Source: Marinifilaceae bacterium (GTDB lineage Bacteria > Bacteroidota > Bacteroidia > Bacteroidales > Marinifilaceae). Taken from it: a DNA stretch of 64,000 nucleotides. A program made the translations under genes and the position numbers. The stretch spans positions 49,050 to 113,049 of the forward strand of contig JADGEF010000001.1 of the NCBI GenBank assembly GCA_016744515.1, read 5' to 3'. Positions 27,747 through 56,481 of the stretch are shown piece by piece. Under the pieces are notes generated by a model, which did no database searches, was not told the DNA's origin, and worked only from the letters and a program-made list of their open reading frames with translations. How positions within the stretch are numbered: position 1 is the first letter of the stretch; every line of letters begins with the position of its first letter.

Positions 27747-27827
27747 GAAATAAAGTAAGTTTGGTGTTTAAAATTACGTAACGCCTCTTACCGAAATCGT
27801 TAGTGGTTATTAAAAAAAAACGATACT

Positions 27828-28898
27828 ATGAACTATAGACTTAGATGTTTTTTAATAGGAATAATCATATTAATCTCAATAAATCAATCATTTGGACAAA
27901 AGATTAAGGTTTCTGAAAACTTGATTTTATATAAATTATCAGAACATTGTTATGAACACACCCAAAAGAACAATAACGGATTGATTTATATTAATAACGG
28001 AAAAGCAGTTATTGTTTCAACTCCCGATTCTGATATTGAGACGCAAAATTTAATAGATTGGGTGCGAAATGATCAACACGCTAAAATTATTGCCTACGTG
28101 ATTGACAGGTGGCATCCAGATGCAATGCAAGGATTAGATATTGTTAAAAAAAATGGAATAAAAAGCTATGCTTATGAATTAACAAGACAAATAGCCAAAG
28201 AGAAAGGATTGCCGATTCCTGAGATCGGATTTAATCCTAAAAAAGAAATAAAAGTCGGTGATAAAAAGGTGATTTGCCATTTTCTGGGGAAAGCTCATAC
28301 TTCCGACGGAATAGTTGTTTGGATACCGAGTGAGAAAATTCTATTTGGTGGAAATGAGATTAGAAATTATAACGGATGGATTGGTAATATTGGCGATGCG
28401 CATCTTGACAAGTGGTCTGAAACAGCAACAAACATAAAAAGAGAATATGGTTCTGCAAAGATTGTCATTCCGGGACACGGAAAATATGGAGGTGTAGAAT
28501 TAATTGATTATACTATTGATTTATATAAATTTACAAACAATGAATCAATTGCTAGTAGTTCTGAAATATCCATTAAGCCTGATTTTAGAACGGATAAAGA
28601 ATTTTTTATAAAAGCTGAATCTAATTCTCTTCAAAATGGAAAGCGAATCCTGAAAAATGCAATTATGATTGTTCAGGATGCAACAAAACTTATAGAGATT
28701 GAATCTCCTCAAATTGTTTATCAAACAGACAAAAAAAGAATTGATTCAGAAATTGGAAGATTAAGGATTTACGATAAAATAACAGATAACGAAGTACTAA
28801 GAACAGATGTCAATTATAAAAGACTGATTGTCTATAAATATGATGATTTTGTTGGATTTGTAGTAATATTGAAAGGAATAGAAAATAACAATCGCTAA
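27828..28898 (+). CDS. Subclass B1-like metallo-beta-lactamase fold protein with altered metal ligands and a C-terminal extension
   Basis: NGLIYINNGKAVIVSTP, DRWHPDA, FLGKAHTSDGIVVWIP..KILFGGN, IVIPGHG; signal peptide; about 100 extra C-terminal residues. Confidence 0.8.
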   Translation: MNYRLRCFLIGIIILISINQSFGQKIKVSENLILYKLSEHCYEHTQKNNNGLIYINNGKAVIVSTPDSDIETQNLIDWVRNDQHAKIIAYVIDRWHPDAMQGLDIVKKNGIKSYAYELTRQIAKEKGLPIPEIGFNPKKEIKVGDKKVICHFLGKAHTSDGIVVWIPSEKILFGGNEIRNYNGWIGNIGDAHLDKWSETATNIKREYGSAKIVIPGHGKYGGVELIDYTIDLYKFTNNESIASSSEISIKPDFRTDKEFFIKAESNSLQNGKRILKNAIMIVQDATKLIEIESPQIVYQTDKKRIDSEIGRLRIYDKITDNEVLRTDVNYKRLIVYKYDDFVGFVVILKGIENNNR

Positions 28899-28985
28899 CA
28901 ACTAAGCGTTCGTGTAGCAGAAACTACCCAACATGAACGGTGGGTTGACGTAACCGATGACAGAATTGCTACTTTATGGGGAATG
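28893..28985 (+). repeat. attC-like element, short type, left arm only
   Basis: CGCTAAC-AACTA-AGCGTTCGTGTAGCAGAAACTACCCAACATGAACGGTGGGTT; the upstream stop codon lies in the TAAC; homologous to 42380, 54282 and 56320. Confidence 0.8.
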
Positions 28986-29158
28986 ATCTAATTAGCGGAA
29001 CATTTAATAAAGGGGAACTTGCAATATGAAGCCCTTTTTAAATGCAGTGATTTCAAAAATAGAGTAAAGCTATGGATTCATCTGCAGCTTTTTTTGTGTT
29101 TTGTATTTCGGTGGTTTTATAATAGGGTATAGCTATATCATTAGCCTTGCTTTAAGAC

Positions 29159-29443
29159 TTTAGTGTTCAATCTGGCGAAAGAGACTTTATGCATTTATGG
29201 AAGCTCACAGAAGTAGTTCTTCTAGAAAAATTAGTTTGCTTTTGGGAGTATGAGGAGTGTGAAGACGAATCTCTCGTTTGTTTTGAAACTTTTATAAGCG
29301 AGAAAGGTTCATGTCTACGTCTGACGCATACAGTAATCGAAAATTTCCCTCAGTCCATTTCTGAATTTACACGTGAGAGTTGTTTCTGTGGATGAAAATA
29401 TTTTATTTGTGATCGACTTAAAGCTTACACTGAGACATTATAA
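29159..29443 (+). pseudogene. SRPBCC (Aha1-like) domain pseudogene
   Basis: FSVQSGERDFMHLWKLTEVV...LRLTHTVIENFP...FTRESCFCG*KYFICDRLK; TGA sits where the conserved Trp is expected and the 5' part is decayed. Confidence 0.7.
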
Positions 29444-29516
29444 GCTTAACTTATTTATTAGGTGTGTTTTAACAAGTTATTAGGATGTCTAGATACAGAA
29501 CTTTTAAAAATTCGGT

Positions 29517-29524
29517 TACTTTTG
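29517..29524 (+). promoter_or_regulatory. -7 promoter box of the RND operon
   Basis: TACTTTTG, 27 bp before the ATG. Confidence 0.55.
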
Positions 29525-29551
29525 TAGTATAAATAATTAAATCTACCTATA

Positions 29552-30670
29552 ATGAATCGTAAAGTTGTAATTGTTGCCTCAGTTGTGCTAATATTAGTCT
29601 TGGGCTTTGCAGGTATGATGGGTTTAAAAAGCCTTAAGAAGCAACCTCAGAAAGATTTAAATAGAAAGAAAGTTCCATTTGTAAAAGTGGAGCAAGTCAA
29701 CTATCAAGCTATCGCAACTCCAATTGTTGAGAAGGGACGCTTGGTGTCAAACCTGGAAGTGAATTTAAGTTCAGAAGTTCCTGGACGTATAGTTGAAGTT
29801 GGTGTGCCGCTTAAAGTGGGACAGCGCTTTAAAAAAGGCGATTTTCTTCTTCAGATTTATAATGAGGATGCACGTATGGATCTTCAGGCACAAAAAAGTA
29901 AGTTTCTGAATAAGCTTGCTCAAAGCCTTCCAGATATTAAGATTGACTATAAGGATCGTTTCGACTCTTGGATGAATTTTTTTAATGCAATTAAGCTTGA
30001 TGAGAATATACCCGCTTTACCTGAAATGAAAACAGGAAAGGAAAAAGTATTTTTGGCAAGTCGTAATATTTTAGGTGATTATTATGCCATAAAATCCAGC
30101 GAAGTTAAACTTTCTAAATATCGTATTTATGCACCATTCTCAGGTTCCTATGTTCAGGTAAATACCCAAATAGGAGCTGTGGCAGGAATGGGTTCAAAAC
30201 TTGCGAGCCTTATTGAGTCTAGAAAATTGGAATTGCAAGTGCCTATCGAATCGGAAGATATCAAATGGCTGCGTATTGGCGATCAGGTTGATGTATTGAA
30301 TTCGAGTGGCGTGAAAGTAGCTTCGGGTAAATTGTTACGTAAATCAGAATTTGTAGATGAGGGAACTCAGTCTATTGCCGTATATGTTGGATTAAATAAG
30401 ACAACTTCAGAATTGTATCAAGGACAATATTTTACAGCTAAATTTCACGGAAAACTGATTGATCAGGTAATGGAAATTCCTCGAAATGCTGTATTTAGAT
30501 CGAATAGAGTATTTGTTGTGGAGAAGAATATGTTGAAAGAGAAACAAATTAATGTAATTAAGAGAAACGAAAATACTTTGATTTTCAATGGTCTTTCTGA
30601 AGGTGAACTTTTAGTAATATCGGTTCCTGTAAAAGCAGCTGAAAATATGAAGGTGCAGATTATGAAATAA
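29552..30670 (+). CDS. RND efflux periplasmic adaptor (MFP)
   Basis: N-terminal anchor, VNLSSEVPGRI, IYAPFSG; directly upstream of the RND permease. Confidence 0.92.
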   Translation: MNRKVVIVASVVLILVLGFAGMMGLKSLKKQPQKDLNRKKVPFVKVEQVNYQAIATPIVEKGRLVSNLEVNLSSEVPGRIVEVGVPLKVGQRFKKGDFLLQIYNEDARMDLQAQKSKFLNKLAQSLPDIKIDYKDRFDSWMNFFNAIKLDENIPALPEMKTGKEKVFLASRNILGDYYAIKSSEVKLSKYRIYAPFSGSYVQVNTQIGAVAGMGSKLASLIESRKLELQVPIESEDIKWLRIGDQVDVLNSSGVKVASGKLLRKSEFVDEGTQSIAVYVGLNKTTSELYQGQYFTAKFHGKLIDQVMEIPRNAVFRSNRVFVVEKNMLKEKQINVIKRNENTLIFNGLSEGELLVISVPVKAAENMKVQIMK

Positions 30671-30700: not shown

Positions 30701-33700
30701 ATGAAGCATATTATATCTCATTTTGTCAGACATCCCTTTTATGGGAAGATGATTATTGCACTTTTTCTTATTGCGGGTATTTTCTCTTTATTCCATATGA
30801 AGAAGTCGTTTTTTCCAGAAACGGAATCCAAAACAATTACTGTATCTATGGTTTACCCCGGAGCTTCTCCCAAGGAAGTTGAAGAGGGGATAACATCTCG
30901 AATTGAAGATGTTATACGAGGAATTGTAGGTATTAAAGAAATGAACTCGGTATCATCAGAAGGTTTCGCTAGGGTAACAATTACTACAACTGGTGATTTA
31001 AAGCTAGATGAAACGCTTGCTGATGTGAAAAATGCCGTTGATGGAATTCCTTCATTCCCTTCGGGAGCCGAAAAGGCGGTAATAGCAAAAGTTCGATCAA
31101 CAACACCAGCTGTAAGAATGGCCGTAACAGGTGATGTCGATTTATTGACACTAAAGCGTTACTCAGACGTTATTTATGATGACTTGATGCGTTCCAAGAA
31201 GATGTCGCAGATCTCAATTTCAGGCTTACCACGTTTGGAACTATCAGTAGAAATAAAGGAAGACGATTTACGTCGTCATAAATTAAGCTTTTCAGAGGTA
31301 TCAACAGCTATTGCTAGCAATAATATTGATATATCAGGAGGTGTTATTAAGAATGCCAAAGAAGAAATTATAATTAGATCTCGTAACCGTTCGGTTGATC
31401 CGGATAAGATTGGAGAAATTATTGTACGTGCTAATTCTGATGGATCGTATATCAGATTGAAAGATGTTTGCGATATTCATTTTCAATTCGAGGATGTGCC
31501 GCGTTCTTCTTATGTCAATAATAATCCAGCCGTTTCAATTCGAGTAAATAAGTTAAATAATGAGGATTTAGAGGAGATTTCAGAATTCTGCAATCAATAT
31601 GCTAAGGCGTTTAATGCGGATCATACTGATGCTAGTTTAGAGGTTACTTTCGACTATGTTAACATGTTACAATCACGACTAAACCTATTGTATAAGAATG
31701 GTGGCTATGGTCTAGCTCTTGTCGTTCTAGCTTTAGCTTTGTTTTTAAGTTTTCGTTTATCCTTATGGGTAGCTTGGGGAATTCCGGCTTCATTTTTAGG
31801 TATGTTTATTTTTGCGAACCTAATGGGAGTCACCATCAATATGATTTCACTTTTTGGTATGATTCTAATCATCGGTATTCTTGTTGATGATGGAATTGTG
31901 ATTGGAGAAAATATTTATACGCATTTCGAAATGGGGAAGAGTCCTCGTCGAGCAGCCATTGATGGAACCATGGAGGTTGTACCTGCCGTTTTAACTTCGG
32001 TTACAACGACTATGGTCGCCTTTACACCACTCTTACTCGTTACGGGTAATATGCAATTCCTTTACGAGATGGCTTTTGTTGTTGTTGCTTGTCTTGGGAT
32101 TTCTTTATTCGAAAGTCTTTTTGTTTTGCCAAGTCATGTGGGGAACGAAAAGGTACTGAATGTGAGAAAAAGCCATACCGCTTTTAATCGCTTCCGAGAT
32201 AAAATTGAAAAAGGCATTATGTATATGCGTGATCGTCTTTATATGAGCTTTTTGAGAAGAGCCATAAAATGGCGTTGGATCATTGTTTTTCTGCCAGTAG
32301 CTTTCATTTTTATTACTGTTGGTTTATTTGGTGGCGGTTTTATAAAAAGTACCTTCTTTCCTAATGTGAGTTTTGATACTTTTAATATTAACGTGGCTTA
32401 TAAGCCAGGAACCAATAAGGATATTACTGTTAGAGCTTTAAAGAGTTTTGAGAATGCGGTTTGGGAAATAAATAAGGAATTAAAGGAGAAGCATAGCCAG
32501 AAAGATGATTTTATTAAATATACAAACCTATCAGTAGGTTCGGCATTTAATGGTCAGGAATCAGGTCCGCATTCAGGAAATATTACTGTAACACTTCGAG
32601 ATATGGAAGGATCTCCAATTTCGAGTTTTGATATCTCTAATGCAGTAAAGAAAAGGATTGGTGATGTGAACCTAGCCGAAAAATTTACCATTGGCTCATT
32701 TAATAGATGGGGTGCAGCAGTTTCGGTTAGTCTTTTGGGCAGTGATTTAGAAGAACTAAATGCTGCCAATATCTTTTTTCAGAATGAGTTAAGAAAAATG
32801 ACTTCTCTCTATAATATCAATGACAATAACCCATTGGGAAGCCGTGAGGTTCGATTAAAATTGAAAGATAAAGCTTACTATTTAGGAATGGATTTGCGTA
32901 GTATCACTTCGCAAGTTCGTCAAGGTTTCTTTGGTGGTCAGGCTCAGCGTTTACAAGAAGGGAAAGATGAGATTAAAGTTTGGGTGCGTTATCCAAAGAG
33001 TGATCGCATCTTTATTGGACAAATGGAGAGTATGCGTATTAGAACTCTAAATGGTGAATACCCATTGTCGGAGTTGGTTGATTACGATATTTTACGTGGT
33101 CCTGTTAGTATTCAGCGATATAATGGTGCGAGAGAAATTCGTGTTGAAGCTGATTTATTAGATCCCAATGAGCCCGTTCCTCCTATTTTGGAAGAAGTGA
33201 CCAATAATATATTGCCTGTTCTTAAAGAGAAATTTCCAAGTGTACGTCCCGAATTTCAAGGTCAAGCAAAACGTTCATCTGAAGATATTGCTGAAATGAA
33301 AATTTACTTTTCAATTGCTTTTATAGCTATCATGTTTATCGTGATGCTTCATTTTAGATCTTTCACTCAAGGAATGATTGTAATTATGATGGTTCCTTTG
33401 GGGATTATTGGATCAACTTGGGGACATGGTATTGAAGGCGTTCAGGTATCGATGCTTAGTGTATGGGGAATGGTTGCTCTTTCGGGTGTCATTATTAACG
33501 ATGCCGTCGTCTTCCTCTCCAAATACAATACCAATTTAAAGGAAGGGATGCATCCCGAAGCTGCTGTTATTGGTGCTGGTAAAGCACGTTTTAGAGCCAT
33601 TGTTCTAACAACAATTACCACGTCGGTTGGTTTGTATCCTCTAATTTTGGAGAATTCATTTCAGGCTCAGTTCCTTATTCCAATGGCTATTGCTTTAGCT

Positions 33701-33865
33701 TATGGTGTTTTGGTTGGAACCTTTTTTATCCTAACACTTTTTCCTGTCATTATTCTTGTTTTGAATGATATTCGAAAATTTACAAGGGAACTTTGGACAG
33801 GAGAGAAAGTTGAGGCAATTGATGTCGAACCGGCAATTAAGGAAGCTAAAGTAACACTTGATTAA
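30701..33865 (+). CDS. RND efflux permease (AcrB/AcrD/AcrF family)
   Basis: 1054 aa. YPGASPKEVEEGIT, GILVDDGIVIGENI, KARFRAIVLTTITT. Confidence 0.95.
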   Translation: MKHIISHFVRHPFYGKMIIALFLIAGIFSLFHMKKSFFPETESKTITVSMVYPGASPKEVEEGITSRIEDVIRGIVGIKEMNSVSSEGFARVTITTTGDLKLDETLADVKNAVDGIPSFPSGAEKAVIAKVRSTTPAVRMAVTGDVDLLTLKRYSDVIYDDLMRSKKMSQISISGLPRLELSVEIKEDDLRRHKLSFSEVSTAIASNNIDISGGVIKNAKEEIIIRSRNRSVDPDKIGEIIVRANSDGSYIRLKDVCDIHFQFEDVPRSSYVNNNPAVSIRVNKLNNEDLEEISEFCNQYAKAFNADHTDASLEVTFDYVNMLQSRLNLLYKNGGYGLALVVLALALFLSFRLSLWVAWGIPASFLGMFIFANLMGVTINMISLFGMILIIGILVDDGIVIGENIYTHFEMGKSPRRAAIDGTMEVVPAVLTSVTTTMVAFTPLLLVTGNMQFLYEMAFVVVACLGISLFESLFVLPSHVGNEKVLNVRKSHTAFNRFRDKIEKGIMYMRDRLYMSFLRRAIKWRWIIVFLPVAFIFITVGLFGGGFIKSTFFPNVSFDTFNINVAYKPGTNKDITVRALKSFENAVWEINKELKEKHSQKDDFIKYTNLSVGSAFNGQESGPHSGNITVTLRDMEGSPISSFDISNAVKKRIGDVNLAEKFTIGSFNRWGAAVSVSLLGSDLEELNAANIFFQNELRKMTSLYNINDNNPLGSREVRLKLKDKAYYLGMDLRSITSQVRQGFFGGQAQRLQEGKDEIKVWVRYPKSDRIFIGQMESMRIRTLNGEYPLSELVDYDILRGPVSIQRYNGAREIRVEADLLDPNEPVPPILEEVTNNILPVLKEKFPSVRPEFQGQAKRSSEDIAEMKIYFSIAFIAIMFIVMLHFRSFTQGMIVIMMVPLGIIGSTWGHGIEGVQVSMLSVWGMVALSGVIINDAVVFLSKYNTNLKEGMHPEAAVIGAGKARFRAIVLTTITTSVGLYPLILENSFQAQFLIPMAIALAYGVLVGTFFILTLFPVIILVLNDIRKFTRELWTGEKVEAIDVEPAIKEAKVTLD

Positions 33866-33990
33866 AAGGGAAACAAGGGTAAAGTGAATAAGGATAAAGT
33901 AAACAAGCTTAAAGTAAATAAGGGTAAAGGAGCCTGTCGACTTTCGAGGATTTGACTTTTCAGACTTTTCGACTCTTTGACTTTTATGGA
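33866..33990 (+). repeat. Low-complexity intergenic repeats (about 15-mer AAGGGTAAAGTRAAY, then GACTTTTC 8-9-mers)
   Basis: Read directly; the first part is the reverse complement of the CTTTACCC family at 40792-40924. Confidence 0.7.
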
Positions 33991-34010
33991 CATTTAGAAA
34001 AATAGAAACA

Positions 34011-35297
34011 ATGAATAAATATATAATAATCGTACTCATGTTGTTTTGTGCAGGCTCTTTGTCTGCACAAAAAGATTTAAATCTTGCTCAGGCCGTTGAG
34101 ATTGGACTTGAGAAGAACTACAAGATTCAGATAGTACGTCAATCAGAGAAAATTGCTGATTTGAATAATACTTGGGGTAATGCAGGTCAATACCCTAAGG
34201 TAGAATTCAACTTTCGTTCTAATAATAAGAAAGATTATAATGAAAATGATGATTTCAGGCAGAATGTATTAAGTCCATCCATTGATTTAACTTGGACTTT
34301 ATTTGATGGCTTTGCTGTTAGTATTCGTAAGGATAAATTTAATGACCTTGCTGCTCTTTCTAAGGGGAATACCATAGTAGCTGTTGAAAGTCAAATTCAG
34401 TTGATTATTCTAGCTTACTATAAAACCTTGATGGAACAGGAGCGTTTGGCAGTTAGCAAAAAAATAAAGGAACTTTCTGAAGACAGATATGGGAATGAGA
34501 AAGTAGCGAGTGAACTGGGGACAAAAGGTAGTTACGAATTGCTTCTGGCTAAGAATGCTTTTCTTGAGGATAAGTCTAATTACCTGACGCAGCAAGTGAA
34601 TTATAATAATACTGTTCGTGACTTGAATTTTCTTTTAGGTGTTGAGGAGAGTACCCAGTATATTTTTACCGATGCTTTTATCACTAATGTTACGGATTAC
34701 CGATTGGCTGATTTAATCGACAAGATGTTTGCTAATAATAACAATTTGAAGAATCGTTATATGCAAGAGGCTATTCAGAAGCGAGATATTGAAATGGCTC
34801 GATCGAATTATTATCCTCGAGTTTCATTGGGAGCGGGAGCACAAGGAAATAAGTTTATACAAAAGCATGATGTTGCCCCTAAGCTCGATAATAAATCACA
34901 TAACCTGTATGCAAATTTAAGTTTGAATTGTTTGATATTCAATGGTAATGCAAATCGTAGAGCCTTGCAGATAGCAAAAATTGAAGAGGAAATTTCTAAG
35001 ATTGAGACTGCTGATTTAAAACACAGCTTGACCAATACTTTAGCTCAGAATTTTGAGTTGTATGAGTTACGCAAGGAATTGTTCGACTTAGCTGAGGAAA
35101 ATATGTCGGCGACAGAGATTAACATGCAGTTGTCTAAGGAAAAGTACGAGTCTGGTAGTATTAATTCATTTAACTACCGTGATGTTCAGATAAGTTATCA
35201 GAATGCATCCTTAGGCAGACTTACGGCTATCTTTAATCTAATTCAATCGAAAACTACTTTAGTTAGAATGACAGGTGGTATATTGAGTGAGTTCTAA
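34011..35297 (+). CDS. TolC family outer membrane efflux protein
   Basis: Signal peptide, LTWTLFDGF, ARSNYYPRVSL, KYESGSINSF; follows the RND permease. Confidence 0.92.
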   Translation: MNKYIIIVLMLFCAGSLSAQKDLNLAQAVEIGLEKNYKIQIVRQSEKIADLNNTWGNAGQYPKVEFNFRSNNKKDYNENDDFRQNVLSPSIDLTWTLFDGFAVSIRKDKFNDLAALSKGNTIVAVESQIQLIILAYYKTLMEQERLAVSKKIKELSEDRYGNEKVASELGTKGSYELLLAKNAFLEDKSNYLTQQVNYNNTVRDLNFLLGVEESTQYIFTDAFITNVTDYRLADLIDKMFANNNNLKNRYMQEAIQKRDIEMARSNYYPRVSLGAGAQGNKFIQKHDVAPKLDNKSHNLYANLSLNCLIFNGNANRRALQIAKIEEEISKIETADLKHSLTNTLAQNFELYELRKELFDLAEENMSATEINMQLSKEKYESGSINSFNYRDVQISYQNASLGRLTAIFNLIQSKTTLVRMTGGILSEF

Positions 35298-35463
35298 ATT
35301 CAATAGATCGTGAGATATGAGAATCAAGACATGAGACTGATTTGTAAGCTGCTTATAATCAATATATTAATTAAAACACGATGGGTTTATAATAATTTTA
35401 TTACCAGGTGTTTATAAAACCTTACCGAACTATTGAAATTAAGACATGCTAAATTTTAAGCAT

Positions 35464-35496
35464 AAAAAAACCGTCACTCGAGTGACGGTTTTTTTT
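35464..35496. terminator. Bidirectional intrinsic terminator
   Basis: AAAAAAACCGTCAC-TCGA-GTGACGGTTTTTTT between convergent genes. Confidence 0.9.
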
Positions 35497-35518
35497 ATGA
35501 TCTATAACGAAAATGTGT

Positions 35519-36115: not shown

Positions 36116-36276
36116 AATGTGTAATTTTTTGTATTTAATAATTTAATGAGTTCCGTATTTATAAATTCATCTGTAAAGAATATAGCTGTATAGATTGACG
36201 AATTTATATTAAATTTTTTAATTACAAAAGTATTCAAAAATCAGACCAAGTTTATAAATATGGTGATAAAAGGCAT

Positions 36277-36309
36277 AAAAAAAAGCTCGACCGTCATAGT
36301 CGAGCTTTT
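36277..36309 (-). terminator. Intrinsic terminator after pepC
   Basis: AAAAGCTCGAC-N7-GTCGAGCTTTT with a U-tract on the minus strand. Confidence 0.8.
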
Positions 36310-36329
36310 AATATAGTCGTTGAGTTTGA

Positions 36330-42379: not shown

Positions 42380-42541
42380 ATATAGCAAAGTGTTTTATCC
42401 TTTAGTTTGTCGAAGTTAACAAAAAAAGAGAATGAAGGTTTATCTACATTCTCCATAAACTAACAATTCTCTTAACGGTTACGTGAACCCACCGTTCATG
42501 TTGGGCAGTTCCTGCCACACTAACGCTTAGTTGTTATGGGC
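42380..42541 (-). repeat. attC-like element, short type, right-end GTT decayed
   Basis: Minus strand CCATAAC-AACTA-AGCGTTAG...GGATAAAACACT-TTGCT-ATA; close to 56320-56481. Confidence 0.85.
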
Positions 42542-42550: not shown

Positions 42551-43063
42551 TTATTTTTTACGGAATGCGCTCAAATACTCTTTGTTATTTTCATTTATTT
42601 CAATAATCGTCCCATTTTCAACAAAAAATTGTATTGGAAAGCCTCCAGTTGTACCCTTTCGTGAGAGGCTTATTTCTTTAACGAAATTGTTATAGTTTTT
42701 TGTAGATAGCAGTAAATAATTTCCATTCACTTGTTTCTTTTTTACGAATCTGGTGAATTCAATTTTATTGTTAAAATCGTTTGAGCTAAAAACGTGTAAC
42801 AATTCTAAATTTGTTAAATCATTTCCCCCTTTTTCAGTTGAATACAAGCAGTTGTCGGAGTCAGGAGTCCACAGATTTACCAATACGGTTTTATTTGATA
42901 ATTTTTCTATTTCGGTTAAGTCATGTATTGATTCAATTCTGTTATTCTCAATGAAAACAACATTTTCATCACTAGAATATTGGCTAAAGTCATAAAGCTT
43001 GATTACTAATACTGTTATTAGTGTAGTAATTGCTATTCCAATAAAAATAATTCTCTTATTCAT
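42551..43063 (-). CDS. Membrane-anchored thioredoxin/TlpA-like protein with SxxC in place of CxxC
   Basis: LSNKTVLVNLWTPDSDNC parallels LKGKxVLVNFWAxWCxxC; GGFPIQFFVENG parallels the cis-Pro strand. Confidence 0.55.
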   Translation of the reverse strand: MNKRIIFIGIAITTLITVLVIKLYDFSQYSSDENVVFIENNRIESIHDLTEIEKLSNKTVLVNLWTPDSDNCLYSTEKGGNDLTNLELLHVFSSNDFNNKIEFTRFVKKKQVNGNYLLLSTKNYNNFVKEISLSRKGTTGGFPIQFFVENGTIIEINENNKEYLSAFRKK

Positions 43064-43165: not shown

Positions 43166-43380
43166 TAACAACGTAAAAGTGTTTTATCCTTTCGTTTGTC
43201 GAAGTTAACAAAGAAAGAACATTAAGGTTTATTTTCATTCTCTTTTCTGATAAGAATACTGACAAATAGAGGATAAAATAGAGTTGAACAATGCCGTTGA
43301 GCCCATGGGTATTCAATAGGTTCTTCTTTTCAATATCGACATTGCACCTCCTTTTTAATTCCTACGCTTATTTGTTTGCC
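43166..43380 (-). repeat. attC-like element, long type (215 bp), complete
   Basis: Minus strand GGCAAAC-AAATA-AGCGTAG ... AAAACACT-TTTAC-GTTGTTA; aligns without gaps to 45966-46180. Confidence 0.8.
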
Positions 43381-43416
43381 GAGTTTTAGTCCTAAGCTTG
43401 TGTATTATTAAAAACT

Positions 43417-43446: not shown

Positions 43447-44175
43447 TTAAACCAATTCGGTATCAGGTTCGTTTGTTTTTCTGCGACGTTTAACTAAATC
43501 GTTATTTTTCTCGATTAACTCGGCAATTGTTTTGGCAGTAGCCTCATAGGTGGCAGGGTTTACCTTTGCCATGGTATTCATATAGCCCACCAAGTTGTTG
43601 TTAATATCAGCGATGCTCCCCTTTTTCAACTGGCTTGCCGAAGCCAAATCGTTTTTCACACTTTTACCTTCGGCCTGTTGCAATGTCAAATTTTCAAAAT
43701 CTTGTTGAGCCGCACTTGCCGCTGTAATTGTTTCGGGTACGCCCTGCAATTTTGCTATGGCTAGCACAACATCAGGTTTGTTTAAATCGTTGAGTAAGGA
43801 TTCAATATTTGCTGATTCTTCGGCATAATCCTCATTCTGTATGCTCAAGCCATATTGCTCCAATATGTTGTATACAACCAAGGCAGCTTCTTTTAGTTCA
43901 GCAATGGGAATATAGATATAGCCCTCTACCAACTTAAACAAGGCTTTAATTGCTGTATCGCGAACAAGATCTTTCTCTGCCATTTGAGAATAAACTTTCA
44001 ATCGTTTTAATGCCTCAATTAATGAGGTATTAGTAGCGCTTATTTTTTTTATTATGGGAGAAAGATAGGTGTCTGCACTCCAATCAATCTTCGCAAATGC
44101 TTTTAGAATAAGAGTTAATAATGCACTTACATCGCCATTGCGACTACTTGGTGTAATTTTTTTAATCAATGCCAT
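43447..44175 (-). CDS. DUF6261-like helical protein of unknown function
   Basis: 242 aa all-helical; RNG near the N-terminus, D..RD.AIKAL, ILEQYGLSI...YAEES..IESLL.DL resemble Bacteroidota DUF6261 proteins (recognised from memory). Confidence 0.7.
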   Translation of the reverse strand: MALIKKITPSSRNGDVSALLTLILKAFAKIDWSADTYLSPIIKKISATNTSLIEALKRLKVYSQMAEKDLVRDTAIKALFKLVEGYIYIPIAELKEAALVVYNILEQYGLSIQNEDYAEESANIESLLNDLNKPDVVLAIAKLQGVPETITAASAAQQDFENLTLQQAEGKSVKNDLASASQLKKGSIADINNNLVGYMNTMAKVNPATYEATAKTIAELIEKNNDLVKRRRKTNEPDTELV

Positions 44176-44265
44176 TCTTAGTTTTTTTAAGGATTAATAT
44201 TTATTAATTATTCAAAAAATCTTTTTTTGCTTTACCTGTATTGATTATTCAAAATGTCATTTTTT

Positions 44266-44516
44266 GCTTTGTCACTATTGATATTGGGTGAAAAATCACT
44301 ATTTCATGCTTTGTCACTATTGATATTGAGTAAAAAAACAATTTTTCATGCTTTGTTACTATTGATATTGGGTGAAAAACCAATATTTCATGCTTTGTCA
44401 TTATTGATATTGGGTGAAAAACCACTATTTCATGCTTTGTCATTATTGATATTGGGTGAAAACCATTATTTCATGTTTTACCTGTTTAGGCATTGATCAA
44501 AATACCAGTTTTTCAT
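44266..44516. repeat. 42-bp tandem repeat array (5 core units plus a variant unit)
   Basis: GCTTTGTCAYTATTGATATTGGGTGAAAAAYCAMTATTTCAT at 44266, 44308, 44350, 44392 and 44434 (41 bp); variant unit at 44475. Confidence 0.95.
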
Positions 44517-44790: not shown

Positions 44791-45239
44791 GAACAATGCC
44801 GTTGAGCCTATGGGCATTCTATTGGTCTCTCTTGTGCATTGGAGGTAGCAAGCTCACCAGAATTTCTGTACTTGCCTAAGTTAAGCCTGTTTTGTTTTAA
44901 TATCAGGTAATTATTATAGACATAATTATCTTTTTTTTGTATTATAGGACAATTAATTAGTGCTAGAATCTTTTATTTCGAATTATTCCAATTGTAACTA
45001 TCATTAATGATAGAAATATTTCAGCTCCACTTAGTAACATATTTTCAATTTTAGATTCTTTATTCTAATATTCCGAAAATACCAATGCACTGAAAATCTA
45101 TCAATAAAAAACCAAAACTGTCAATAAGTACATAGGGCTAAAATTCGAATAATCAACAGGGATATAGTTCAATCCCGATGCAAAATCGAGACAGGCTATG
45201 AACACATCGCTGGGTCTTGCAGACCGCTCATAGTTCTAT
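44791..45239 (-). repeat. About 450-bp duplicated block, copy 1 (includes a truncated long attC-like element at 44791-44886)
   Basis: Highly similar to 46086-46532; flanks the TA pair as a direct repeat. Confidence 0.95.
44963..45040 (-). CDS. Small hydrophobic peptide MLLSGAEIFLSLMIVTIGIIRNKRF (25 aa), copy 1
   Basis: ATG after an A-rich initiation region; one predicted TM helix plus a basic tail; first 24 residues identical to copy 2. Confidence 0.35.
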   Translation of the reverse strand: MLLSGAEIFLSLMIVTIGIIRNKRF

Positions 45240-45260
45240 ATTTTTACCAAACGTAATTTT

Positions 45261-45548
45261 CTACATTTGAAGGTTAAAATTCAGTTTTGCTCCTAAAGCA
45301 TTAAAAATTCTCATTACTGTTTCAAAAGTCACATTTCCTGTACTATTTTCAAGTCTAGATATTTGCGCTTTTTTTACTCCAACTAATTCTCCTAATTGTT
45401 CTTGAGTTAGTTTTCTTTTCTTCCTGGCTGTTTTAATCATATCTCCAATCAATTCAAGTTTTAACTCAAATTCATATTCGTCTCTTTCTTCAGTTCCCTT
45501 TTTTCCAATTAAAAGGTCTTCTGCTTGGTCTAAAGTGTAACTTTTCAT
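45261..45548 (-). CDS. XRE-family HTH antitoxin (HigA-like)
   Basis: IKTARKKRKLTQEQLGELVGVKKAQISRLEN; overlaps the toxin stop codon. Confidence 0.9.
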   Translation of the reverse strand: MKSYTLDQAEDLLIGKKGTEERDEYEFELKLELIGDMIKTARKKRKLTQEQLGELVGVKKAQISRLENSTGNVTFETVMRIFNALGAKLNFNLQM

Positions 45549-45886
45549 TTCTCTGTATTTTTAAAATATTCGTTTCTAATTTTATTTGCTTTGTCAATTT
45601 CTTTTTTATCGACTTTGCTTGTTTTCTTTACAATTCCGTGAGTTGCAAAAACAAGTGTTTCTGTTTTATCATCTTTATCCCAAAATGCTAAAAGTCGATA
45701 TTGAATTCCAGCATGTAGTGTTCTAAATTCCCAAATCTCGTCAGTTAATTTTTTAAAGAACTTTGGGTCAGATTGTTGTTCAGCTCTTCTTATATTCTGA
45801 AATATTTTATTTCTAGTTTTAAGATTTTGTTTTTTAATAAATTCAAAAGCTTCTTCTAGTAATTTCGTTTCAAATCGTTTTATCAT
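45545..45886 (-). CDS. RelE/ParE (HigB/Gp49-like) toxin
   Basis: FFKKLTDEIWEFRTL...YRLLAFWD...ATHGIVKKTSKVDKKEIDKA; toxin-first gene order. Confidence 0.9.
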   Translation of the reverse strand: MIKRFETKLLEEAFEFIKKQNLKTRNKIFQNIRRAEQQSDPKFFKKLTDEIWEFRTLHAGIQYRLLAFWDKDDKTETLVFATHGIVKKTSKVDKKEIDKANKIRNEYFKNTEK

Positions 45887-45965: not shown

Positions 45966-46180
45966 TTGCAACGTAAAAGTGTTTTATTTTTTAGTTTGTC
46001 GAAGTTAACAAAAAAAGAGAATGAAGGTTTATTTCCATTCTCTTTTCTGATAAGGATACTGACAGATAGAGGGTGAAACATAGTTGAGCAATGCTGTTGA
46101 GCCTATGGGTATTCTATTGGTCTCTCTTTCTTACTGGTGTTACAAGTTCACTCAGACTGTTATGCCCTGCTAAGTTAAGC
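45966..46180 (-). repeat. attC-like element, long type (215 bp), complete
   Basis: Minus strand GCTTAAC ... AAAACACT-TTTAC-GTTGCAA; same length and GTT/AAC register as 43166-43380. Confidence 0.8.
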
Positions 46181-46532
46181 CTGTTTTGTTTTAATATCAG
46201 GTGATATTTAGACATAATTCGCCCTTTTTTGCATTTAGGACAATTAATTAGTGCCAGAGTCTTTTATTTCGAATTATTCCAATTGTAACTATCATTAATG
46301 ATAAAAATATTTCAGCTCCACTTAGTAACATATTTTCAATTTTAGATTCTTTATTCTAATATTCCGAAAATACCAATGCACTGAAAATCTATCAATAAAA
46401 AAACCAAAACTGTCGATAAGTACATAGGGCTAAAATTCGAATAATCAACAGGGATATAGTTCAACTCCCGATGCAAAATCGGAACAGGCTATGAACTCAT
46501 CGCTGGGTCCTGCAGACCGCTCATAGTTCTAT
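46086..46532 (-). repeat. About 450-bp duplicated block, copy 2
   Basis: Highly similar to 44791-45239. Confidence 0.95.
46248..46331 (-). CDS. Small hydrophobic peptide MLLSGAEIFLSLMIVTIGIIRNKRLWH (27 aa), copy 2
   Basis: As copy 1; the only change in codons 1-24 is synonymous (TTA/CTA). Confidence 0.35.
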   Translation of the reverse strand: MLLSGAEIFLSLMIVTIGIIRNKRLWH

Positions 46533-46790
46533 TTATTAGTTGTCATTCTAATTTTTAGAGCGATTAATGATGATTCTGTTATTGCGGCCATTTTTACTAT
46601 TGCAGGATATACTTATGAACCCTTACTCGGATTGTATGCTTTTGGCTTGTTTACGAAACTAAAGGTGAAAGATAATCTAGTGCCAGTTGTGGCTTTTTAT
46701 CCCCTATTATCTGTTCCATTTTAAAAAGCAATTTCAAAATGGATTTAGCTGGAGTATAATTAACATTTTAATATACATGTCTAAGACATG
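46533..46790 (+). pseudogene. Sodium:solute symporter C-terminal fragment
   Basis: LLVVILIFRAINDDSVIAAIFTIAGYTYEPLLGLYAFGLFTKLKVKDNLVPVVA matches the Bacteroidota SSS C-terminus AGYTYGPLLGLYAFGLFT; the 5' part is absent. Confidence 0.8.
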
Positions 46791-52778: not shown

Positions 52779-54281
52779 ATGAAACAATTGAGAATTATTA
52801 CGAGTATTCTGGTTTTATTGGTAACTACTCAATCGGTAGTGAAGTCGCAAGATCTTACTATTTTGAAGCTAGACTTGGAAGCAAGTATCAATATTGCAAA
52901 AGAGAAAAGTTATTCTATGTTAGTGTTGAAAGAAAGCATGAATGCGGCTAAGTATCAGTTAAAGGCTGCCAATAGTTCATTCAAGACCCATATGAATATG
53001 GACATTACAGCTCCTAATTATTCTGAATCCATAGTCGATTTTCAGGATACTAAAGGAATGACTTATTTCTCTAATAAGCAATTGTCTTATTCTGGAAATA
53101 TCACAATTGATCAGCCATTACCTACCGATGGACGCTTATTTATCCGATCGAGCATGTATAATACGGATGATTACGATCAGGACGAGAAGTTTTTAAAGCT
53201 ACAAACACGTATTGGTTTAATCCAGCCAATTCAATCTCTTTATGCATATAATTCAATCAGATCCGAATACGAAAAAGCACGATTGAATTATGATTTGACA
53301 AATAAGCGATTAAAAAGAAACGAATTGGATCTAATTTACCGAGTAAGTAAAGCATTCTACGATTTACATTCTTCTAAAGAGCGTTTAAGTATTACTAAGA
53401 CATCAATGGAGAGGTTGTCCGAAGCTTATGAAATTGCACAAAATAAATTTAAAGCTGGTCTAATACGAGAAGTAGAGGCACTTCAGATGGAGGTGGATTT
53501 GGGAGAAGCTCAAAACTCATACGATTTGGCAAATGTTAATTATGGTTCGCAGCTAAATGTATTTAAACAGGTACTTGGATTATCACTTTCCGAAAAAATA
53601 GAATTGGAAGGTGATTTTAATTACGCTCCTGTTCAAATCGATGTGAAAAAAGCAATTAAAATGGCATTGGAGAATCGTTTGGAGTTAAAAGAACAGCAAC
53701 TTCAAATTGATTTAACCAACATAGAATTGAAGAGGGTGAAATCGAGAGGAACCATATCTGGTAATTTGGAAGCTTACTATGATTTTGTGGGTATACAGCA
53801 GTATGATATCAACAAAAGTTTAGGTGGTGCTATTAGCGGAAGTTGGAATGCCTTGAAAGATCGTCCAGCAAATTTTGGAGTTTTATTAAAGCTAAAGATT
53901 CCAATTTTAGACTGGGGTGAAAATAGATCACGAGTAAAAGCCGTAGAATCTCGTATTAAGCAAAGTTTATATCAACAGGAAGAGCAAACAGTCGAGATTG
54001 AAAGTCAGGTGATGAGAACAGTTAATGAGCTTCACAGTACTTTAAGAAGATTAGAATTATTAAAAAAGAATAGAGTAATAGCCGAAAAAAGTTTTGCCAT
54101 CTCTCAAAGCAGGTTCTCGAATGGAGATATCGATAGTCAAACATTGGCCTTGGATCGAGAAAGGTTAGATAAAACAAATGAATCGCACTTAGCGGCATTC
54201 ATCGCTTACAAATTAAAATTAGCTGATTTAATGCGCAAAACCTTCTACGATTTTGAGAAAAATCAGCCAATTGTTTATTAG
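52779..54281 (+). CDS. TolC family outer membrane protein
   Basis: Signal peptide, KFKAGLIREVEALQMEV, LKIPILDWG, RFSNGDIDSQ; ends the ABC operon. Confidence 0.92.
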   Translation: MKQLRIITSILVLLVTTQSVVKSQDLTILKLDLEASINIAKEKSYSMLVLKESMNAAKYQLKAANSSFKTHMNMDITAPNYSESIVDFQDTKGMTYFSNKQLSYSGNITIDQPLPTDGRLFIRSSMYNTDDYDQDEKFLKLQTRIGLIQPIQSLYAYNSIRSEYEKARLNYDLTNKRLKRNELDLIYRVSKAFYDLHSSKERLSITKTSMERLSEAYEIAQNKFKAGLIREVEALQMEVDLGEAQNSYDLANVNYGSQLNVFKQVLGLSLSEKIELEGDFNYAPVQIDVKKAIKMALENRLELKEQQLQIDLTNIELKRVKSRGTISGNLEAYYDFVGIQQYDINKSLGGAISGSWNALKDRPANFGVLLKLKIPILDWGENRSRVKAVESRIKQSLYQQEEQTVEIESQVMRTVNELHSTLRRLELLKKNRVIAEKSFAISQSRFSNGDIDSQTLALDRERLDKTNESHLAAFIAYKLKLADLMRKTFYDFEKNQPIVY

Positions 54282-54339
54282 TCACCCCAACATTCATGTT
54301 GGGCAGTTCCTGCCACACGAACGCTTAGTTGTTATGGAC
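54282..54339 (-). repeat. attC-like element, short type, left arm only
   Basis: Minus strand GTCCATAAC-AACTA-AGCGTTCGTGTGGCAGGAACTGCCCAACATGAA; the upstream stop codon lies in the TAAC; truncated at the tolC stop. Confidence 0.85.
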
Positions 54340-54685
54340 AGTTTAGAAGTAATCCTGTTCCAAAAGAAATCATATTACAAGTCAATGAGCATAATAATGA
54401 AATCATATATTTTGTCCTAAGCATTGCTGAAATAATAATTGATTCAATTAACACTGCAAAAGATTCTCCAATTATTATATACCAAATTTTTTGGTTAATA
54501 TAGCTTGGAATGATAAACCATAAATAAGGTAATGTTGCAAAGCTTGCAACGAATCCAGTAACTAATAAACTAGAAATAGTTATTTTCTCTGACCTAACAA
54601 CAAATCGAAAGAATATTACTATTACAATAGTCTCAATTAAGATAGTCAATGCCAGACTTTGGAAAAATTGCAACCTATAATCCAT
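54332..54685 (-). CDS. Small integral membrane protein of unknown function
   Basis: 117 aa, 3-4 hydrophobic segments, ATLPYLWF and ESFAVLIES motifs; 3 bp from the upstream gene. Confidence 0.75.
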   Translation of the reverse strand: MDYRLQFFQSLALTILIETIVIVIFFRFVVRSEKITISSLLVTGFVASFATLPYLWFIIPSYINQKIWYIIIGESFAVLIESIIISAMLRTKYMISLLCSLTCNMISFGTGLLLNCP

Positions 54686-54688
54686 ATG

Positions 54689-55735
54689 TTAAATTTTTAT
54701 TGTTTTAAATCTTTTGTTCGAAGTTAATACTACAAATAATACAATTGTGGCCAGCAAGGTGATAGAAAATACCACGAAATCATTTTTAAGCCACATGTCA
54801 TTACCAATAATTGTTGGTAATGAACCTATAAAAAGAGCAGCTGTGGTCAATCCAAATGACAAGCCTCTATTTTGGGGCATAACTCTCAAAATCGCAATTA
54901 ATGTAACGGGCATTGTGAAATTAAAAACAAAGGCTCCTAATATAGCAAGAAGTGGTATTGATGAATAAAAAGCAAGTAGCGGTACTGAGAGTAACAAGCC
55001 TCCAATACCTATTTTTATTAATCCATATTTATCAGCCAGAATACCACCAAAGACTTTGCCCAGTGCTAATGCTGCAATTAAAATCATAAACAAATATTGA
55101 TTTTCTTTCCAGGGAAATTCAATCGATAGACCAATTAAAGAACGAACAGCTATCGGAATCATGATTAACGCAACAATTAAGACACTGTAATTAGGCATCC
55201 TTTTTCTTTCAACTGTTCGGTTGAAGTTTGGTGTCTTAATAAAGTATAAAATAGAACTAAGAACCAATAATATAAATGGAAAAAGGATGAGATTTATTTC
55301 AACCCTTGAGATCGATAAAAAAGAGCTTAAGGCTAAACCTATTCCTCCAGGAGCGACATAAATTCCCGAAAAAGTAGCTTTCTTTTCTTTTAACGACAAT
55401 ATAAGACTCCCTCCACCAACATGAAATAGGGCATTTCCTATGCTAACAATAATTAAAGCAGTATATATTTTACTCCAGAATAAAAACGACAAAGCGATAA
55501 AAAGTAAACCAACAATTGCTGCTAGTTTGGGATTGAGAGCTTTGTCAATTAAGTAACCGAATGGAGCTTGTAAAACAAATGCAATTCCATTATAAAGCAA
55601 CATGAATAAAATAATATTGCCACTAAATTCAAGAATTCCAAAGAATAAGAATGCACAAGCAGCATCTACTAGTAAATGTGCAATAGCGTATGTTGTAATG
55701 AAAGGTGTAATCTGCGAAAACTTATCTGAATACAT
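54689..55735 (-). CDS. MFS-like membrane transporter
   Basis: About 10-11 TM segments, AHLLVDA, GNALFHVGG, GGILADKYG. Confidence 0.75.
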   Translation of the reverse strand: MYSDKFSQITPFITTYAIAHLLVDAACAFLFFGILEFSGNIILFMLLYNGIAFVLQAPFGYLIDKALNPKLAAIVGLLFIALSFLFWSKIYTALIIVSIGNALFHVGGGSLILSLKEKKATFSGIYVAPGGIGLALSSFLSISRVEINLILFPFILLVLSSILYFIKTPNFNRTVERKRMPNYSVLIVALIMIPIAVRSLIGLSIEFPWKENQYLFMILIAALALGKVFGGILADKYGLIKIGIGGLLLSVPLLAFYSSIPLLAILGAFVFNFTMPVTLIAILRVMPQNRGLSFGLTTAALFIGSLPTIIGNDMWLKNDFVVFSITLLATIVLFVVLTSNKRFKTIKI

Positions 55736-56280
55736 TAATTAAAAGTTTGGTGCAGTTTCGATAAATCGCCCTCATAATCATAATTTTTAACTAGGTCGGC
55801 TTTCTTTTCCCAATATTTAAAAACCTGTTTTGTTTTGTGCAAAATCATTGTAGTATCATTAAATCCTACAATTTCATAAGTGTGTTCTACCTCTCGTATC
55901 CCTTTCAAAGCAGTTTTGTCGTAGTCTGATAGTATGGTAATATTCGAACTTATCACATTTTTCTTATTTTCCCAGTCAATATCTTTATCATCTCGATTTT
56001 TCAGATATTCTTTTTTTACGGCAAAGAGTTCCGCTGAACAATGTATATGTTTCATAATTACACCATTTCTTTCTTGGTAAACTCTTGTAAAGCCCATATG
56101 TGCGTATTGAGGTAAATCTTCATCTTTAAATACCGCAAATACAGTTATATCAGGATAATCAGTCAGGTTTATTATTCTATGCTTATTGACAGTACCTGTT
56201 TTAGAAATTATGATATCACCTTGCGTATTAATAGTCAGAATTGTTAACACTAGTAAAATTGAATACTTTAAACTTTTCAT
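55735..56280 (-). CDS. Secreted protein of unknown function
   Basis: Signal peptide MKSLKYSILLVLTILTINTQG; stop overlaps the next start codon. Confidence 0.75.
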   Translation of the reverse strand: MKSLKYSILLVLTILTINTQGDIIISKTGTVNKHRIINLTDYPDITVFAVFKDEDLPQYAHMGFTRVYQERNGVIMKHIHCSAELFAVKKEYLKNRDDKDIDWENKKNVISSNITILSDYDKTALKGIREVEHTYEIVGFNDTTMILHKTKQVFKYWEKKADLVKNYDYEGDLSKLHQTFN

Positions 56281-56319
56281 GTCTTTTTATTTTATTAGAA
56301 GTTCATTCATTTAAATTGG

Positions 56320-56481
56320 ACATAACGTAAAAGTGTTTTATCCTTTCGTTTGTCGAAGTTAACAAAAAAATAGAATTCAGGTTTATCTACATTCCCATAA
56401 ACTAACAATTCTCTTAACGCTTACCTCAACCCACCGTTCATGTTGGGCAGTTCCTGCCACACGAACGCTTAGCTCTTACGC
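56320..56481 (-). repeat. attC-like element, short type (162 bp), complete; left AAC reads AAG
   Basis: Minus strand GCGTAAG-AGCTA-AGCGTTCG ... AAAACACT-TTTAC-GTTATGT; the next ATG is 40 bp downstream. Confidence 0.85.

Follow-up and report, generated by a model that had tools for sequence, protein, structure and literature searches.

Mosaic intergenic repeats as probable cassette recombination sites of an integron-like system in Marinifilaceae

Seven related intergenic repeats lie scattered over a 64-kb stretch of the genome of a Marinifilaceae bacterium (64,000 nucleotides of contig JADGEF010000001.1, assembly GCA_016744515.1; this whole stretch is called the window below). They are located at 28893 on the forward strand (+) and at 42380, 43166, 44791, 45966, 54282 and 56320 on the reverse strand (-). 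An earlier note, made from the letters alone, had likened them to the attC sites of integrons. The question raised by the locus is whether the Bacteroidota, regarded as a nearly integron-free phylum, harbour a gene cassette system of their own, and which enzyme would serve it. The analysis reported here, which is sequence analysis throughout, indicates that the repeats are most probably cassette recombination sites, functional analogues of attC, belonging to an integron-like system native to Marinifilaceae and Marinilabiliales. Cassette-level hallmarks of integrons occur here together with a Xer-type recombinase: the likely partner enzyme is Xer/XerA-like, not IntI, and is seen only in related genomes.

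Repeat anatomy, cassette arrays and junctions

All seven repeats were found again at these positions. Core motifs of the family occur 4, 4 and 3 times in the window for 0.13, 0.00 and 0.00 expected after shuffling, confirming a real family well above chance. The elements are mosaics in which a left module, A or C, is joined to a common right module B. Module A (~95 nt) reads ..YAAC AACTAAGCGTTCGTGTGGCAGGAACTGCC..TTAGTTTATGG and module C covers ~90-145 nt, while module B (~80 nt) is composed of a hairpin and a T-run followed by GTTAACTTCGACAAAC..ATAAAACACTTTTAC|GTT (also written GTTAACTTCGACAAAC.AAAGGATAAAACACTTTTAC|GTT). The copies at 42380 and 56320 are A+B elements of about 160-170 nt and those at 43166 and 45966 C+B elements of about 215 nt. 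The short (~160 bp) and long (215 bp) types with a common right arm of ~85 bp, as first described, are therefore recognizable in these four copies; the 54282 and 44791 copies are fragments and the 28893 copy carries another right module. Measured lengths range from 160 to 215 nt in the window and from 80 to 305 nt in related loci. Complete copies have the proposed ends, YAAC..AAGCG on the left and ACACTTTTAC-GTT on the right. The stop codon of the preceding gene falls within the TAAC at 28896-28898 and at 54332-54334, the two cases expected, and the next ATG follows the GTT after 40-103 nt, the range given before. The elements had also been said to follow genes of the same orientation, and a co-oriented open reading frame (ORF) precedes all of the callable B-type copies (20/20).

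The family extends beyond the window. Loci retrieved from related genomes and metagenomes are designated by L numbers (L002, Ancylomarina longa; L032, L. antarcticum AP018042.1; L033, a Labilibaculum metagenome-assembled genome, MAG; L036, Ancylomarina sp.; L031 and L037, metagenome contigs). An exact 19-mer of module B is present in A. longa, in Ancylomarina sp. and, three times, in the Labilibaculum MAG, and a longer B pattern in 13 metagenome loci. L017 and L021, which are contiguous, form an array of at least nine tandem units, all in the same direction, each consisting of one small unrelated ORF and an element of 205-305 nt in which a left module, D, is joined to B. Similar tandem arrays of small ORF and element are found in L015 and L016. 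Models of A, C, D and the B-type elements gave no match in the arrays of L031-L036; the site families of these arrays are different ones, among them the E-type and short sites considered below.

Comparison of close strains reveals what these elements delimit. L024, from the BORC21-1 metagenome project that is also the source of contigs ~99.95% identical to the window, is 99.9% identical to window positions 30918-42382; beyond this point it carries genes of 106, 317 and 271 aa and a C+B element. The breakpoint of the window against L024 and L025 lies at 42382-42386. The cassette content next to mgsA therefore turns over between near-identical strains, and at least one cluster of the window is strain-variable, as the earlier note had suggested should be checked along with the position of the breakpoints. 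These fall at the GTT: in L010 and L015 a cassette with its element is 99.8% identical up to ..CACTTTTAC and different from the next base on, and L018 and L022 diverge just after GTT. In L042, a metallo-beta-lactamase (MBL) gene whose product is 79% identical to that of the window is surrounded by different neighbours; the nucleotide alignment is limited to 27795-28900, a span bounded by the GTTAG start and the ..GCTAAC box of the window's MBL unit. L039 contains a 98% identical variant of the three-gene unit of the window, with a complete A+B element where the window copy ends at 54278.

A further feature links each cassette to its own element. In L032, L033 and L036, each cassette opens with 9 bases that are reverse-complementary to the 9 bases ending in AAC at the left end of its own downstream element, although cassette start and left box lie 0.7-2.7 kb apart. 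Complementarity was scored at positions 4-10 only (7 informative positions per cassette) against derangement controls. The nine recombinase-adjacent cassettes match at 57/63 positions (control mean 21.1, maximum 34). Ten B-type cassettes, two of them from the window, match at 37/70 (control mean 21.3, maximum 35 in 5000 permutations), a value that includes two mis-scored cases, an indel in L020 and the mislocated junction of the thioredoxin-like unit. This relation, with about 21 matches in the controls of either set, is the one known from integron cassettes, whose TTRRRY start is complementary to the RYYYAAC of the R'' box. Single cassettes reach 8/8 in L016 and, for the two beside mgsA in L024, 9/9 and 8/9. 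In the window, the MBL unit matches at 5/7 and the three-gene unit at 5/7 informative positions (8/10 overall), reproducing the complementarity, 6 of 7 by the earlier count, proposed for these two units. A cassette of A. longa (L002) begins at a B-type junction, GTTGGCATT, and ends in an E-type element whose box, AATGCCAAC, matches this start at 9/9 positions, which shows B-type ends to be functional junctions of the same system. An unanchored search for complements of the L017 cassette starts performed no better than controls, and the signal appears only with the left end anchored at ..AAC|AAAA... Such an inverted repeat between start and left box is the signature that circular cassettes cut at G|TT would carry.

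These data suggest the following organization. A cassette would read G|TTNNNNNN - gene(s) - NNNNNNAAC - variable interior - ..CACTTTTAC-G. The opening 9 nt would form an inverted repeat with the left box of the element belonging to that cassette, and in the circular form a 9-bp stem would thus close the site.

The linked recombinase, its attI-like site and competing explanations

A recombinase of 358-370 aa is located 5' of the arrays and co-directional with them in L011, L031, L032, L033, L036 and L037, in keeping with the earlier suggestion to look for a co-occurring enzyme. In L011, a motif scan of the retrieved loci detected two tyrosine recombinases together with an IS91-family transposase; these immediately precede a C+B element and the cassette that is also the first in L017. 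The recombinase family is large and includes members from Marinifilum, Labilibaculum, Ancylomarina, Draconibacterium and relatives; among the best 120 of 7967 scored relatives, the named sources are Marinilabiliales. The closest relative in the PDB is the XerC-like protein of P. abyssi and the best model is the XerA-type NF040815 (217.4 for a cut-off of 220), the integron-integrase model TIGR02249 giving 198.8 for a cut-off of 265. The protein aligns to VchIntIA (2A3V) in two pieces, with residues 257-278 opposite IntI residues 181-244. With ~21 residues where VchIntIA has 63, it lacks the IntI-specific domain. This extra domain is the defining marker of integron integrases and is considered indispensable for recognition of folded attC. 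No recombinase carrying it near patch III was found in the window, and the array-linked recombinase does not have it either. How an enzyme of this kind handles the present sites, as folded single strands or otherwise, is a question raised by the system.

The recombinase stop codon is followed on its 3' side by a conserved hairpin, an inverted repeat ATGCAC-N7-GTGCAT and then ..YTAAC-GA-G|TT(R). L011, L031 and L037, whose recombinases are 85-99% identical, diverge exactly after GAG|TT, and on this ground the region behaves like an attI site. The first cassettes of L032, L033 and L036 begin at the G|TT junction and their own left boxes match at 9/9 positions; in L011, a B-type element and an array cassette lie directly downstream of the junction. 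The attI-like site of these related loci is thus situated at the G|TT of the first cassette. The arrays differ from their flanks in GC content (31.4% against 37.6% in L032, 32.0% against 38.5% in L033). L011 also contains, at 3129-5418, a unit that combines a C+B element with genes for an IS91-family transposase and a 278-aa tyrosine recombinase; it lies in cassette position right after the attI-like junction. The transposase and C+B part of this unit is kept in A. longa (L002 7285-8000) with 76% nucleotide identity.

The full platform of these related genomes is made of a recombinase gene upstream and in the same direction, the hairpin, ATGCAC-N7-GTGCAT and ..YTAAC-GA-G|TTR, with the first cassette inserted there. 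The window itself has no platform and contains three integrase-less clusters. We infer that the recombinase would catalyse excision and integration, possibly with a folded single strand as substrate, and that it would act on the window clusters in trans.

Several observations weigh against this reading. No tyrosine recombinase was detected in the 64-kb window by motif scan, tblastn or family-profile hmmsearch (best E 0.26), as already observed in the earlier note. The 42380 copy is devoid of the terminal TACGTT, and no GTT closes the 28893 copy. At the 'G' position, one of L010 and L015 has C and the other A, which fits a mutation or a cut before that base. The C+B element also occurs 3' of an IS91-family transposase in two genera. 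The poor complementarity noted before for the thioredoxin-like and toxin-antitoxin (TA) units persists: the former matches at just 2-3/7 positions, and the TA, R and DUF6261 units are undefined in this respect. The attC-type fold of the bottom strand, proposed as a check, was not recovered for the window elements either. The minimum-energy folds of the B-type elements leave the ends unpaired and the bottom strand is not favoured, while the RNAalifold consensus of six D+B copies retains a 5-bp terminal stem only, with almost no covariation.

More generally, single-sequence RNA and DNA folds of the elements are not significant. In A+B, C+B and D+B elements only the terminal box pairs; their interiors are weakly structured and they have no extended L-box palindrome. 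The E-type and short sites of related loci have an L box that pairs at 15/17, with mismatches that are A.C on the top strand and G.T on the bottom strand, and the bottom strand is more stable in 6/9. Since the window elements lack an attC-type hairpin, they are classified here as attC analogues and not as attC sites.

The association with IS91 offers an alternative in which B would be the oriIS-type end belonging to a rolling-circle transposon of the IS91 family, the apparent cassettes arising by one-ended transposition next to a GTTR/CTTG target. In both L011 and A. longa a transposase of this family (NCBIfam E 1e-119) is followed by C+B, ..TTTTAC is adjoined by NTTR (including CTTG in L010), and repeat R of the window contains a weak remnant of a transposase C-terminus. 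However, a Y2 HUH transposase inside the unit is confined to L011 and L002 and was found neither in the window nor in the arrays, which reach at least nine cassettes without one. Conservation continues past the tetranucleotide (GTTRGS), and the L011 unit occupies, as a passenger would, the stretch from the attI-like junction to the following cassette. The 9-nt inverted repeat of start and left box is foreign to IS91 ends, and E-type and short elements display it without IS91. Rolling-circle transposition was consequently set aside as the general mechanism, the transposase-free arrays and the inverted-repeat signature being left unexplained by it, and we consider it very unlikely.

The elements might otherwise be autonomous mosaic repeats of the REP/BIME, BOX or MITE kind, maintained as terminators without mobilizing their neighbours. 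Their modular composition (A+B, C+B, D+B, A+F) would agree with this, as would the imperfect terminal inverted repeat YAAC-N4-AAGYGTT, the hairpin and T-run of B and the fragments and truncated copies in the window. But the left box is cassette-specific and matches a start 0.4-2.7 kb away, a signature expected from circular cassettes and not from self-moving repeats, which favours cassettes. Gene and element move together (L010/L015, L039, L042), it is gene-plus-element units and not bare elements that vary between strains at four loci, and the arrays adjoin a recombinase whose junction is defined. Target duplications were not observed. There is little chance that such repeats account for the data.

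Equally improbable is a classical integron whose true IntI is encoded elsewhere in these genomes, the Xer-like recombinase being a bystander. The R''/R'-type boxes, the attI1-like ..TAAC-RA-G|TT junction, the TA cassettes and the intron insertions do look canonical, and reviews list Bacteroidota among the integron-bearing phyla (PMC8618304). However, at six independent loci, in at least three named genomes of two genera (L. antarcticum, Labilibaculum sp. MAG, Ancylomarina sp.), the recombinase lies directly upstream of the first junction, from which its gene is separated by a conserved inverted repeat. No IntI was seen in any locus examined, and IntegronFinder surveys of Bacteroidetes yielded only In0 elements at first and, with IntegronFinder 2.0, a single complete integron, in Salinibacter ruber.

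Selection purely at the RNA level (3' untranslated region structure, small RNA or terminator), with an incidental DNA pattern, is the most improbable of these explanations: it agrees with the constant position 3' of a co-oriented gene, the hairpin and T-run of B and the local hairpins of A, but Rfam searches of the whole window returned no family at the gathering threshold, RNA fold z-scores are -0.7 to -1.5, covariation is almost absent, and variable content, junctions and complementarity would have no explanation. An added terminator role is compatible with cassettes. The hairpin and T-run of module B probably end transcription of each cassette, a role suggested by sequence reading and folds; the terminator scan did not flag module B, whose loop exceeds 8 nt.

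In our judgement the system is thus, with good probability, an integron-analogous cassette system with a non-IntI recombinase, leaving CALIN-like (integrase-less) remnants in the window. Orientation, strain variation, GTT breakpoints, the linked recombinase and complementarity all support the cassette system or decayed CALIN-like arrays envisaged in the earlier note.

Cassette clusters of the window and their surroundings

The units of the window are grouped into three clusters with a GC content of 31.4-31.6%, compared with 34.8-36.1% for the core. Several ends are cut or fused and no recombinase of the family is present, which supports their description as CALIN-like, integrase-less clusters, partly decayed or rearranged, in which some ends are intact. 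Provided that one accepts the elements as attC analogues, and not otherwise, the definition of a CALIN (at least two attC without an integrase nearby) describes the four elements or fragments of 42380-46180 and the two of 54278-56483, with no recombinase within the 64-kb window.

Cluster 1 (27799-29060, +) is composed of the MBL unit and an A+F element. The MBL cassette-like unit (27799..28899, +) starts with GTTAGTGGT (27799-27807) and ends in the left box ATCGCTAAC (28891-28899), the gene (27828-28898) having its stop inside the TAAC. The 356-aa product is a subclass B1 'long type' MBL. Its closest solved relative is CcrA of B. fragilis (PDB search, E 6e-53) and it carries an extra C-terminal part of ~120 aa. 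A Pfam scan of this protein returned no family, at odds with the unambiguous PDB match. Relatives with 60-79% identity exist in many genomes and contigs, the few with a named source being Draconibacterium, Prolixibacteraceae and Melioribacteraceae. The A+F element (28891..29060, +) comprises module A up to ~28985 (nhmmer A match 28884-28982, E 7e-32) and a right module, F, without B and without GTT. Module F is common to L006 and L020; the alignment runs to ..GATTTCAAAAAT and then diverges. Just upstream of the MBL unit (~27440-27690, +), a frame-broken remnant of an IS200/IS605-type TnpA (..FWTSGYYANTVGQYGN..KKYVESQGKKY) was recognized by eye.

Cluster 2 (42383-46537, -) contains five units adjoining mgsA. 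In the order of transcription, it begins with repeat R and its small ORF (copy 1, 46170..46537, -; ORF 46248-46331), followed by a C+B element (45970..46167, -) with left box GGGCATAAC (46167-46159) and right end ..CACTTTTAC G|TTGCAAAC, the G being at 45972. Next is a TA pair (45261..45886, -) that encodes a Gp49/HigB-like toxin (45545-45886, Pfam Gp49 E 6e-15) and a helix-turn-helix (HTH) antitoxin (45261-45548, HTH_3 E 4e-14). A second copy of R (copy 2, 44876..45244, -; small hydrophobic ORF 44963-45040) follows, 95% identical to 46170-46537, so the pair is flanked by a 370-nt direct repeat. Each copy of R includes a small hydrophobic ORF (MLLSGAEIFLSLMIVTIGIIRNK..) and several local hairpins; the remnant resembling an IS91 transposase C-terminus (CPKCKKGRI, 46207-46242) is weak (tblastn, 12 aa, 75% identity, E 0.78).

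Then come a decayed element of 43-100 nt, reduced to a module C fragment without B (44791..44891, -; nhmmer C match 44891-44791), and a DUF6261 gene (43447-44175, -; Pfam DUF6261, E 5e-22) preceded by seven 42-nt tandem repeats (44182-44475). This gene and its repeats (43447..44475) travel within the variable cluster, and a second, truncated copy is found at 57594-58187. A C+B element of ~215 nt lies 3' of the gene (43170..43383, -; nhmmer C 43385-43240 and B 43243-43162), with left box ..GGCAAAC followed by AAATAAGCG and right end ..CACTTTTAC GTT GTTAGGCG. The cluster is completed by a single-gene cassette taken from the ORF list, a 170-aa ORF (42551..43063, -), the 'thioredoxin-like' gene of the earlier note, which belongs to no Pfam or PADLOC family and is missing from strain L024. 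The A+B element closing this unit (42383..42541, -) has left box GCCCATAAC (42541-42533) and a right end that stops at ..AACACTTT without TACGTT; it abuts the conserved mgsA flank as the last element. In this flank, with mgsA on one side and the cassette cluster on the other, 42240-42339 (-) shows, under permissive search settings, a sub-threshold Flavo-1 RNA motif (26 bits for a gathering score of 42) outside the elements. The intergenic region upstream of mgsA contains at 40782-40940 a short-period tandem repeat with copies 14-15 nt apart (TAACCTTT / ACCCTTT units).

Cluster 3 (54278-58187, -) opens with a further set of 42-nt repeats and a DUF6261 copy that is truncated and joined to an E-type fragment, followed by a C-N hydrolase gene, an A+B element, a three-gene unit and a truncated A. 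Its upstream part (56691..58187, -) includes the 42-nt repeats (58006-58187), the truncated DUF6261 copy (57594-57998) and the C-N hydrolase gene (56691-57503, Pfam); such repeats therefore precede both DUF6261 copies. The E-type fragment (57609-57663, -; nhmmer E 3.5e-11) makes this fusion a deletion scar within a former array; the E-type family otherwise occurs in the arrays of L. antarcticum, Labilibaculum and Ancylomarina. The A+B element 3' of the hydrolase gene (56324..56483, -) has a degenerate left box (GGCGTAAG). The three-gene cassette (54332..56326, -), starting with G|TTATGTCC at 56326, encodes proteins of 181 aa, 348 aa (major facilitator superfamily) and 117 aa, the first having just 5 relatives among 5.8 billion proteins. 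It ends in a truncated A module, of which the left 63 nt are present (54278..54340, -; nhmmer A 54343-54281; left box TGTCCATAAC at 54340-54331, with the stop inside the TAAC), cut against the 3' end of an outer-membrane efflux gene.

In L. antarcticum, the array recombinase is preceded by four 41-nt tandem repeats (L032 9577-9740), which resemble the 42-nt repeats in period but not in sequence. The DUF6261 protein was compared with the product of the 246-aa gene upstream of the same recombinase and is unrelated to it. Elsewhere in the window, two upstream regions of ~360 nt (9310-9668 and 13937-14302) are 84-91% identical in blocks and probably represent a duplication of promoters or leaders belonging to paralogous genes. 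Look-ups of the proteins encoded at 29552-30670 and 47020-48246 gave no informative variants, and a tRNA search of the window found none.

In related loci, genes for group II intron reverse transcriptases (RTs) on the opposite strand interrupt element-like sites at ..TTACAAT|CGAGTAGG (L031 10231-11583 and L036 16873-18174), an arrangement that resembles the group IIC-attC introns known from integrons. An intron remnant without an ORF may be present in L024 at the corresponding place (~11460-11890). Recombinase-adjacent cassettes carry defence-type genes. In L005 these are a PDC-M12A/B pair (360-2262; AbiL-like ATPase, E 8e-157, and partner, E 2e-81) that lies in the orientation opposite to its element, and in L036 (11246-16776) they encode a Ppl-like protein of 883 aa and an NTPase of 918 aa. 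The cargo of the few cassettes scanned thus consists of TA, PDC-M12/AbiL-like, Ppl-like and MBL genes and many ORFans.

Relation to known cassette systems

With integrons and CALINs the present system shares promoter-poor, co-oriented cassettes, sites whose left end has AAC and whose right end has G|TT, and a crossover at GTT. Each cassette begins with a sequence complementary to the left box of the site it carries, and the attI-like site adjoins the recombinase gene. TA cassettes, group II intron RTs at some sites and integrase-less clusters elsewhere in the chromosome are also common to both. In contrast, the array recombinase lacks the IntI-specific domain, has ~80 additional N-terminal aa and is co-directional with the array. 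Furthermore, the sites measure 80-305 nt where attC usually has 57-141 nt, and those of the window have neither an extended L-box palindrome nor a bottom-strand preference. The sedentary chromosomal integrons of Vibrio provide another parallel, with long arrays of ORFan cassettes, TA cassettes and lineage-similar site families (B and E type here, VCRs there). They differ in recombinase type and in their shorter sites, and here several site families are mixed in one array (L002, L033, L036). If the system is real, an entire lineage of cassette platforms goes unnoticed in integron surveys. Among the papers searched, none describes junctions, cassette complementarity or an attI-like site in a system of this kind.

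One cassette unit of the window is relevant to the ecology of resistance genes. The origin of cassette-borne B1 MBLs is still open in the literature, and a cassette-bounded B1 MBL gene in the chromosome of an environmental Bacteroidota provides a concrete lead.

Likeness to mobile or repetitive elements is partial. IS91/ISCR elements also have a conserved end adjoining a GTTN/CTTG-like tetranucleotide, and C+B lies 3' of an IS91-family transposase in two genera. However, most cassettes have no transposase, and neither the inverted-repeat signature nor the attI-like platform is an IS91 feature. The BIMEs of E. coli and the BOX elements of pneumococci are likewise modular, located at the 3' ends of genes and endowed with local hairpins, but they do not delimit strain-variable gene units with recombinase-type junctions.

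The closest precedent is rAID-1 (recombinase-associated acquired interbacterial defence) of gut Bacteroidales, in which a 5' XerD-like recombinase is followed by co-oriented short genes of low GC content, with repetitive intergenic motifs that its authors call 'reminiscent of integrons' (Ross et al. 2019, bioRxiv 10.1101/471110). It is defined by a recombinase at least 44% identical to BF9343_RS08045 and at least two co-directional genes with a GC content of no more than 41% (Ross et al. 2019). Co-directional genes in this number and GC range, with intergenic motifs, are present in L032 and L033. Conserved repetitive intergenic sequences, and in the broad sense the order, are shared. The two differ in that rAID-1 belongs to gut genera and carries mainly orphan immunity genes against the type VI secretion system or polymorphic toxins, whereas the marine Marinifilaceae carry TA, defence-like, MBL and ORFan cargo. 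Neither description of rAID-1 (Ross et al. 2019; PMC12247911) mentions exact junctions, an attI-like site or start/left-box complementarity, and the mechanism of rAID assembly was still called open in 2025 (PMC12247911). Defined junctions and sites would make the assembly of the gut Bacteroidales arrays directly testable.

Taking these elements together, we lean, with less assurance than for the cassette sites themselves, towards a joint reading in which marine Bacteroidota (Marinifilaceae, Marinilabiliales) would run a second kind of integron, with attI-like and attC-like sites and a Xer/XerA-type enzyme. Its platform would tolerate sites of up to ~300 nt with poor hairpins and would seed integrase-less clusters at secondary positions in the chromosome, and one of its cassettes would package a chromosomal 'long type' B1 MBL gene. 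It would probably be a marine relative of gut rAID-1 and, if so, would supply the mechanism missing from that system.

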